A model generated the notes under the pieces. The model was not told where the DNA came from. It saw nothing but the letters and a program-made list of their open reading frames with translations, and ran no database searches. Of a stretch of 9,349 nt of DNA, positions 7,662-8,080 are shown one piece after another. Position numbers and translations under genes: made by a program. Origin of the DNA: Escherichia coli (GTDB taxonomy: Bacteria > Pseudomonadota > Gammaproteobacteria > Enterobacterales > Enterobacteriaceae); the NCBI RefSeq assembly GCF_003334315.1, contig NZ_QOWR01000090.1, one strand, 5' to 3'. Position 1 is the stretch's first letter. Each line of letters starts with the position of its first letter.

Positions 7662-8080
7662 GACTGGCTCCTGATTTAAGTAAGGAGTGCAGTCTGATTT
7701 AGAAAAACAGATAAATAAAATAATGTAAACTTCAGGCGGGATAAAATTATTTATATCTAAGGCAAAGATTCAATATTCCCACAGCACACAGAAGTTTTCT
7801 GTCTTCAGGGAGAGGAGCTTCGAAAGTTCAGACGAAAAATTCCTGCGGCCCCTTTAAGAGTCAGTTGGCCGGGTTTGGTCCGCTCCTCGCTCAAAGCGGA
7901 CTAGAAGGTTAGCTTGCGTCGGACTTGGCGTATTTAAAGAAGTGCTGGTGGTGACTGGTTGTTGTGTTCCATTTCTACAGAACAAAATCACAGAAACTAT
8001 ACCCAATAGTTATATTGAATCAATGATGAGACAGCCTCATATTTATCAGAACTGGTGTACGTCCAATACAGGAGGTTGTC

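Follow-up and report, generated by a model that had tools for sequence, protein, structure and literature searches.

A conserved 24-nt palindrome at cargo boundaries of an Escherichia coli lambdoid prophage: a probable cassette-junction element

Introduction

Short palindromes bordering variable genes have been described in several mobile systems. The pdif (XerC/D) modules of Acinetobacter are accessory modules bracketed by inverted pairs of approximately 28-bp dyads, each composed of an arm, a 6-bp centre, and a second arm. Other palindromes to be considered are the attC sites of integrons, and the repetitive extragenic palindromic sequences and bacterial interspersed mosaic elements (REP/BIME). 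In T4-type phages, the PeSL (promoter-early stem-loop) motifs have been proposed to mediate modular shuffling through recombination of one copy with another (Arbiol et al. 2010, PMC2839356; Comeau et al. 2014, PMC4122927), and the abstract of Rousset et al. (2022, PMC9122126) presents defence hotspots of P2-like phages and P4-like satellites. Here, we focus on a stretch of 9349 nucleotides of E. coli (RefSeq assembly GCF_003334315.1, contig NZ_QOWR01000090.1), hereafter the window, which is part of a lambdoid prophage of the Rac/Qin/mEp460 type, and on a hairpin located at 7878–7901, within the 419-bp spacer (7662–8080) that lies between an MFS transporter operon and a small open reading frame (ORF). 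The spacer itself is ordinary, and the interesting part is this hairpin, which, judging from sequence comparisons and with a probability of about 0.7, is a repeated and conserved cassette-junction (recombination) element placed on the seam between cargo and phage backbone.

Prophage hotspots are the source of many new anti-phage systems, and the turnover of their cargo is usually ascribed to unspecified recombination. In the present case, a searchable 24-nt motif marks the edges and the internal junctions of a hotspot in a very common E. coli prophage family. No published description of this element, or of the slot that it delimits, was found in literature searches; full-text searches for the palindrome sequence or encoded peptide strings returned unrelated primer matches only, and the paper on hokW-sokW contains nothing on the upstream region.

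The Hairpin and the Cargo–Backbone Seam

The original prediction, made from the letters of this DNA, had pointed to a 7-bp GC-rich stem with a 10-nt loop that is not followed by a U-tract, and sequence reading finds it exactly so. The arms GTCCGCT (7878–7884) and AGCGGAC (7895–7901), forming seven pairs of which five are G/C, enclose the loop CCTCGCTCAA (7885–7894); the sequence 3' of the hairpin, TAGAAGGTTAGC, contains no T run, and neither does the minus strand, which reads CAAACCCGGCC beyond it. Taken by itself, the hairpin is mildly unusual. A perfect 7-bp stem with a loop of 3 to 12 nt is found in 22.7% of dinucleotide-preserving shuffles of 7662–8080, and one with at least five G/C pairs in 0.95%, and RNA folding of the + strand hairpin gives −16.9 kcal/mol (z = −1.84), a stability reached in 11 of 200 shuffles. 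It is the comparison across genomes that shows the hairpin to be real.

When compared by megablast with 5426 complete E. coli genomes, the whole 7662–8212 stretch occurs in 287 of them, and the stretch beginning at 7878–7887 in about 1756, that is, about a third. Genomes without the MFS cargo hold DUF5677, DUF4209, or two hypothetical proteins in that place, and in the alignment of these other-cargo genomes, identity begins at the hairpin, which is thus the first conserved feature of a block common to some 1750 E. coli genomes. The same boundary is visible in IMG/VR prophage contigs gathered with two independent anchors (82–125 loci), where more than 25 unrelated classes of sequence adjoin the hairpin on its left, and column conservation climbs at 7878 from about 30–50% to about 85–100%. 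Read in this way, the spacer is a seam of two unrelated pieces. Its left part (7662–7877, 216 bp, minus strand) is the 5' region of the MFS operon and is assigned to the MFS cassette since it occurs only where the cassette occurs. Its right part (7902–8080, + strand), upstream of the small ORF, is conserved non-coding prophage backbone, with a column identity of 85–100%, indels, and no conserved RNA structure.

Three Copies of the Palindrome

The element can be described as a 24-nt palindrome, GTCCGCT-N10-AGCGGAC, or alternatively parsed as 9-bp arms around a 6-bp centre, and its flanks lengthen the dyad to AAT...ATT. The window contains three copies. Site A (1139–1162), reading GTCCGCT TTGTGCCA AG AGCAGAC, forms the left boundary of the slot and follows the DUF977 gene at a distance of 69 nt. 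Site B (4812–4835), reading GTCTGCT TTGTGCCA GA AGCGGAC, lies between two cassettes in the same orientation as A. Site C, the hairpin at 7878–7901, reads GTCCGCT CC TCGCTCAA AGCGGAC, forms the right boundary, and is inverted with respect to the other two. Accordingly, A and B form a direct repeat (D1, 33 nt, 79%), and C belongs to an inverted repeat relative to them (I1, 37 nt, 76%). The 15-mer TCGCTCAAAGCGGAC has three matches in the window with up to three mismatches, for 0.27 expected, and three matches were reached in only one of 200 shuffles. The order in the window is therefore backbone, A, a cassette with a BCCT transporter and a DUF2254 protein, B, a cassette with LysR, gamma-glutamylcyclotransferase and MFS genes, C, and backbone again. 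The original prediction had also considered a recombination scar between modules; the hairpin does lie exactly on a module junction, but the term scar does not apply, since the element is conserved and repeated, with copies at the two slot edges and between the cassettes.

The geometry of the element is essentially fixed, the spacing GTCCGC-N12-GCGGAC accounting for 268 of 351 arm pairs. The rest fall almost entirely into two kinds, namely, N13 variants of the loop on the same stem and an unrelated N9 pair that recurs at one position downstream of hokD. The loop part TCGCTCAA is conserved to the same degree as the arms, which points to sequence recognition rather than to structure alone. At least six of the seven pairs are kept in 33 of 40 unique hairpin sequences, largely because both arms are conserved. 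In most related loci, a '+' copy is found at a distance set by the size of the cargo and a '-' copy at −185, that is, 185 nt upstream of the Shine–Dalgarno sequence that precedes the small ORF. Deposited genomes of three lambdoid phages, Tritos, Evi, and mEp460, also contain the slot. In E. coli prophages and in Pantoea alike, the centres differ consistently by edge, with GTGCCA on the left and GAGCGA on the right.

With regard to E. coli as a whole, the element is detectable at a median of one place per genome (maximum six), in prophages, islands, and plasmids (152 plasmid places). K-12 carries two copies in the examined segment of its Qin prophage, at 1645981–1646004 and 1646972–1646995 of NC_000913.3 (4982–5005 and 5973–5996 of our extracted locus L265), one within the annotated ydfV and the other between flxA and ydfW. 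The flxA gene is bracketed by the palindromes in cassette fashion, with relBE-hokD following, and the annotated ydfV could be no more than a spurious frame that runs across the palindrome.

Exchange of Cargo at the Palindromes

In all related prophages examined, unrelated cargoes swap exactly between the palindromes, which match the exchange boundaries of dozens of cargoes within a few nucleotides, at the edges of the slot as well as at internal junctions. Among about 110 of these prophages, homology to at least 27–33 unrelated cargoes ends inside the palindromes. At site A, the backbone is invariant through ...GTCCGCTTTGTGCCA (...cgtggtt GTCCGCTTT GTGCCA); beyond GTGCCA, two bases, the right arm, and its RTT extension change with the cargo, the 17 inner-arm variants being tied to 27 cargo clusters. 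Site C mirrors this arrangement, with a variable AAY GTCCGCT YY and a constant TCGCTCAA AGCGGAC tagaagg.... Hence, the backbone-proximal 15 nt (arm and centre) are constant, and the cargo-proximal 9 nt (variable dinucleotide and arm, usually with the RTT or AAY extension) travel with the cargo.

This linkage can be expressed as the entropy of the inner arm, which is 0 bits given the cargo and 2.34/3.80 given the backbone at site A (27 cargo and 9 backbone classes), and 0 bits and 3.98/4.41, respectively, at site C (33 cargo and 3 backbone classes), although many cargo clusters are singletons, so that these conditional entropies are partly trivial. A single inner arm accompanies each cargo that was found in more than one backbone cluster, of which there are four at site A and three at site C. 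At site B, the left half, recognisable by its GTCTGC, remains attached to the BCCT–DUF2254 cassette and is joined to five different right halves and five neighbours, including those on plasmid pM505-a and in an IS3-flanked island. When the variable dinucleotides were considered as a possible target-site duplication, no direct repeat was observed between the left and right junctions.

The BCCT–DUF2254 cassette with its 3' palindrome (1163–4811 of the window, 1609–5035 of L262, and 610–4029 of L264) shares 97% to 100% identity among its locations. The pM505-a copy adjoins a relB/truncated relE pair and IS26, and the second copy outside the window occupies a chromosomal island between IS3 copies.

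The Slot as a Hotspot for Defence and Accessory Genes

In the interval from the DUF977 gene to hok, loci L002–L141 (from IMG/VR and E. coli) contain at least 29 different cargoes, ranging from 0.8 to 6.7 kb. Among 10 sampled cargo proteins from other prophages, seven match PADLOC defence models, namely, retron-type RT-Toprim I-C, PDC-S39 (DUF4209), PDC-S15, PDC-S06, two NsnA-like proteins (also PD-T4-2), and one Aga REase-like nuclease. On the basis of these matches, we call the slot a lambdoid hotspot for defence and accessory genes; that of the window holds transport and metabolic cargo. The smallest occupant observed is a 242-bp cargo remnant in E. coli A20 (NZ_CP028755.1, 2055350–2055791; L268), which combines the left end of one cargo with the right end of another known class, retains both half-sites, and is either an internal deletion or a cassette fusion.

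The Element outside E. coli Prophages

The range of the 24-mer takes in Alpha-, Beta-, and Gammaproteobacteria and extends beyond them, with multiple copies in the first two of these classes. The exact pattern GTCCGCTTTGNGCNANNAGCGGAC was located at no fewer than 120 loci among GTDB representative genomes, including Pantoea, Mixta, Enterobacter, Siccibacter, and Citrobacter, as well as Hyphomicrobiales, Rhizobium, Azospirillum, and Nitrosomonadales. Pantoea and Mixta carry the copies in arrays of single-gene segments, organised as [A ... 0.5–0.8 kb ... C]-16 nt-[A ... C] (957–2553 of L205 and 265–1997 of L206), the left-hand centre being TTGTGCCA and the right-hand one TCGCTCA, as in the prophages. 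A cassette with a glyoxalase-like ORF is common to two Pantoea species, in which it has different neighbours, and the two copies are homologous (92%) from the inner arm of the left site onward. Many copies occur in Candidatus Pantoea deserta. An alphaproteobacterial metagenome-assembled genome (MAG) of the Hyphomicrobiales (L212) harbours 6 to 14 same-orientation copies per 5–10 kb, often accompanied by a second hairpin in which the same arms enclose the loop TTACCCCCGAA. Rfam scans of the Pantoea/Mixta loci and of one Pantoea array found nothing at the palindromes. The ORFs near the element at the 120 loci are ordinary accessory genes (LysR, ABC components, AraC) and spurious ORFs running through the palindromes, and DUF977 is not near the motif outside prophages.

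Proposed Mechanism

From these observations, we infer that cassettes are exchanged at the palindromes, by recombination in or at the element, each junction copy being a hybrid of a 15-nt backbone half-site and a 9-nt cassette half-site. Our preference, a tentative one, goes to a dedicated, sequence-recognising recombination acting at a fixed point in the element, because of the conserved centre, the fixed geometry, the consistent difference between left and right centres, and the existence of arrays. Short-homology recombination between portable copies of the hairpin, performed by phage enzymes of the RecET/Red type, is an alternative that we rate only slightly lower, neither of the two being put at even odds.

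Several points weigh against the element being a junction of this kind, in addition to the singleton clusters mentioned above. The linkage between arm and cargo may partly reflect shared descent, which would inflate the association statistics, and the outer-half variants at site C also follow the cargo (conditional entropy 0.08). No empty slot was found in the 5426 E. coli genomes, where a chimeric query joining the left and right backbones gave no contiguous match, or in IMG/VR, where a gapped empty-slot pattern gave 0 matches, and the short-loop form of a circle junction is absent from all fetched loci, so that excision and integration are without direct support. In the Pantoea pair, homology covers the entire right-hand palindrome, which leaves the position of the crossover uncertain by about 10–15 nt. 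The GTDB sample was picked by exact arms, and the conservation of the arms within it is therefore circular. All-versus-all BLAST of the ORFs within 2.5 kb of the element at the 120 loci revealed no recombinase or other protein recurrently adjacent to it. Finally, the element may have a role at the RNA level, in the processing or protection of cargo transcripts.

A broader proposal, which we consider unlikely in its entirety, is that the palindrome is the site of an integron-like cassette system distributed across Proteobacteria, with fixed-point exchange between the 15- and 9-nt half-sites, and co-opted by lambdoid phages. Arrays would then reside in the chromosomes of Pantoea/Mixta and of Alpha- and Betaproteobacteria, and phages would use the system to load and swap defence and accessory cassettes in the slot that separates their replication genes from hok. 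The GTGCCA and GAGCGA edge centres could act as heterospecific sites, allowing replacement without inversion.

If the palindrome is a true recombination site, it would represent a new route of cassette mobilisation joining phages, plasmids, and chromosomes; cargo could be mined between A-type and C-type sites, and the element could become a tool for exchanging cassettes. Were it no more than a portable patch of homology, it would still provide a concrete case of the 'linker' sequences of modular phage evolution theory.

Alternative Explanations

Another possibility, which falls short of our preferred reading and which we regard as doubtful but serious, is that the palindrome is a portable REP-like stem-loop located at the ends of accessory operons, for instance as an mRNA 3'-end protector or a binding site for the nucleoid or gyrase, and that the swapping results from ordinary homologous or short-homology recombination (RecA, RecET/Red). 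The element is indeed extragenic, palindromic, and multi-copy in some genomes, such as the Hyphomicrobiales MAG and Candidatus Pantoea deserta; sites A and B are situated 63–69 nt downstream of + strand genes, and no recombinase is associated with the 120 loci. Rac-type prophages are known to encode RecET, which is active on roughly 30–50 bp of homology. On the other hand, the uninterrupted identity available for homologous recombination is only 9–15 nt. REP families are normally species-specific, whereas this element is near-identical across proteobacterial classes, and its few copies in E. coli are limited to mobile elements. Moreover, the bases of the loop or centre are conserved like the arms, and the prophages of E. 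coli share with Pantoea the consistent difference between left (GTGCCA) and right (GAGCGA) centres.

The palindrome could also be an operator for a phage or cargo DNA-binding protein, its position at module edges being incidental, and features in keeping with this are the dyad of 7–10 bp, the fixed spacing, the conserved centre bases, and the DUF977 gene, always present just upstream of site A in these prophages. However, the element occurs in many genomes that have neither DUF977 nor any other common neighbour, and the genes that it brackets are unrelated and in either orientation. Regulation alone would not give hybrid half-sites, and we consider this explanation improbable. DUF977 itself was examined as the binding protein and rejected, as it has no informative relationship in Pfam, where it is only a family of unknown function, or in the PDB, where it has no relative.

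A terminator or insulator parting cargo transcription from the early-right operon of the phage is a very unlikely function. It would fit a GC-rich stem at module ends, and morons, classically flanked by terminators in the comparisons of HK97 and HK022, offer a precedent. Yet no copy has a U-tract on either strand, and none appears in the terminator scan; site C lies upstream, not downstream, of the operon of its cassette, and the conservation of the loop sequence would be left unexplained. An intrinsic terminator was accordingly rejected: a GC-rich stem-loop is present, and no T-run accompanies it at A, B, or C.

The small RNA proposed by the original prediction, or a structured 5' untranslated region of the small ORF including the hairpin, is the least probable reading, since the conserved non-coding 7902–8080 DNA of some 1750 genomes, the stable + strand hairpin (−16.9 kcal/mol), several left-arm C-to-T changes that preserve + strand G–U pairs, and weak promoter-like matches on both strands are set against the absence of any Rfam match, RNAalifold structure, or terminator, the location of the prophage Pas small RNAs elsewhere, and the position of the left arm on the variable cargo side, which means that a promoter upstream of the hairpin cannot be conserved. 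At the Rfam gathering threshold, the whole window yields only RF01794 (sok) at 8213–8387, outside 7662–8080, and an Rfam search of 7600–8250 at E ≤ 10 yields nothing credible. RNAalifold, applied to both strands of 7878–8085 with 46 homologues, did not recover the hairpin or any conserved structure, with energies of only −16.9 and −12.0 kcal/mol over 213 columns and compensations that are singletons only. The compensatory changes that a comparative alignment might have shown at the hairpin are lacking: base pairs vary almost only on one side. The spacer scan detected no terminator, and the promoter-like matches, at 9/12 of the consensus on both strands, are weak and none is convincing.

A few further candidates were rejected. 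The spacer is not part of hok/sok, whose transcript starts at about 8213, 133 nt to the right of the region, and the prophage Pas small RNAs map beside lysis or structural genes. A sigma-54 reading of TGGCAC in the reverse loop lacks the −12 element (TTGC), and a lambda nut boxA reading of the loop CGCTC is a 5-nt coincidence at the wrong genomic position.

Comparison with Described Systems

Each of the analogues considered here (PeSL, attC, pdif, REP) fails at least one defining feature. Like the PeSLs, the element is a short conserved stem-loop motif flanking variable genes in a hyperplastic region of phage genomes. However, PeSLs are composite promoter–terminator motifs of lytic T4-like phages, whereas no promoter or terminator call was made at any of the three 24-nt copies, and the element belongs to temperate lambdoid phages, forms an inverted edge pair with different centres, and is also present in proteobacterial chromosomes.

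With attC sites, the element shares the property of being an imperfect palindrome that delimits promoter-poor, often single-gene cassettes in arrays with hybrid junctions, such cassette arrays being found in Pantoea/Mixta, in the alphaproteobacterial MAG, and, as A-cassette-B-cassette-C, in the window. The 64-nt Pantoea composite (C, 16 nt, and A), in which 21 of 24 arm positions are complementary, could even fold as one long imperfect hairpin. By contrast with attC, there are no RYYYAAC/GTTRRRY boxes, the flanks of the element providing only AAT/AAC and ATT/GTT, and a single element measures 24 nt compared with 57–141 nt. There is no IntI in the window and no recurrent recombinase within 2.5 kb at the 120 loci; the cassettes of the element may lie in either orientation and are flanked by inverted site pairs, and Rfam scans are empty.

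The bracketing of modules by inverted site pairs in different backbones is a feature common to pdif and to this locus, and the element parses as (AT)GTCCGCTTT - GNGCCA - NNAGCGGAC(AT), or equally as a 7–10 bp stem with a 10-nt loop. The arm consensus sequences are GGTGCGCATAA for XerC and TTATGTTAAAT for XerD, and the arms of the element, ATGTCCGCTTT and AAAGCGGACAT, are unlike them. The context is also different, as pdif modules are plasmid-borne and the element resides in prophages and chromosomes.

REP and BIME sequences resemble the element in being extragenic imperfect palindromes of 20–40 nt, sometimes in doublets and multi-copy in some genomes, and they are known as rearrangement hot spots. 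The element differs in that it is low-copy and bound to mobile elements in E. coli, with a high copy number only in some other taxa, and in that its sequence is common to several classes, with no recurrent transposase or RAYT at the 120 loci and no 5' GTAG-type motif.

Finally, the P2/P4 hotspots described in the abstract of Rousset et al. (2022, PMC9122126) resemble this slot in their fixed position in temperate phages, with highly variable, mostly anti-phage cargo between conserved genes. Here, however, a 24-nt palindrome marks the edges and the internal junctions, and that abstract names no junction motif.

Neighbouring Features of the Window

The identical locus of strain CP53 carries, in order, genes for a Cro-like regulator, a YdaT-family protein, a replication protein, and a DUF977 protein, followed by the five cargo genes, of which those for the BCCT transporter and DUF2254 lie on the + strand and those for LysR, gamma-glutamylcyclotransferase, and MFS on the minus strand, and then by hokD, DUF1367, DUF1364, and DUF1133, with lysis genes and trkG beyond. 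According to the CP53 annotation, the first cassette (1163–4811, +) encodes the BCCT transporter (1405–3408) and the DUF2254 protein (3457–4749). The second (4836–7877, minus strand), an imported cassette carried by only 287 of the 5426 genomes, is a single operon encoding the MFS protein (7661–6462), the gamma-glutamylcyclotransferase (6450–5758), and LysR (5761–4880). The DUF2254 and LysR genes converge across site B. The operon promoter and a LysR operator had been proposed in the AT-rich left part of the spacer. A promoter for the MFS operon within 7662–7877 is plausible, one sigma-70-like match being present on the minus strand (TTGAAT-16-AATAAT, 7773–7746, 9/12), although this is a consensus match only, and the LysR gene, rather than being divergent, comes last in this operon.

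The spacer had been described as ORF-free, and this holds, given that the only ORFs of at least 40 residues touching it, 7854–8006 (−) and 7942–8166 (+), are not credible. The former straddles the cargo/backbone seam, and the latter carries a frameshift or stop in 30 of 71 unique homologues. The small ORF predicted next to the spacer is present, but it ends at 8170 and not at 8166. This 29-codon ORF (8081–8170, +) has a GTG start, is preceded by the Shine–Dalgarno sequence AGGAGG (8070–8075), and encodes the hydrophobic peptide MLVLKCALAIAAVMAIYCLAVVLMDRLSD. Neither this peptide nor the two longer ORFs had a credible match in PHROGs or NCBIfam. Located directly upstream of the hok promoter, the 29-codon ORF varies less than any other stretch of the region, and 71 of 74 unique homologues keep it intact; 14 of its 28 variable sites are at codon position 3, and counts of 15 synonymous changes (22.7 sites) and 15 non-synonymous changes (61.3 sites) give a non-synonymous/synonymous ratio of about 0.37. 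It has no RefSeq annotation and is 'hypothetical' in a few GenBank records; it could encode a small membrane protein or a second type I-like toxin beside hok. With regard to annotation, the window would thus gain a cassette seam and an overlooked conserved 29-codon ORF by hok, and no small RNA gene.

Further to the right, a promoter-like site for hok (TTGGCG-17-TAGAAT, 8178–8206, +) places the transcript start near 8213. The hok mRNA leader/sok region spans 8213–8387 on the + strand (RF01794, 116.1 bits for a gathering threshold of 59, E = 1.5e-26), and the coding sequence of the HokD toxin extends from 8382 to 8537 (+), as taken from the RefSeq annotation of the identical locus and the ORF list. 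Some 70 nt before the small ORF, the backbone portion of the spacer contains a highly conserved dyad, AACTAT-ACCCA-ATAGTT (7995–8011, 91–99% column identity), which could be an operator or a transcript feature, and one class of homologues has beside it, in place of TTGAAT, a perfect hairpin CTCATCA-ATGATGAG. Lastly, an AT-rich 24-nt inverted repeat with 71% complementarity links the region upstream of the MFS gene (7700–7723) with that downstream of hok (8625–8648), and is probably a chance match of AT-rich tracts.

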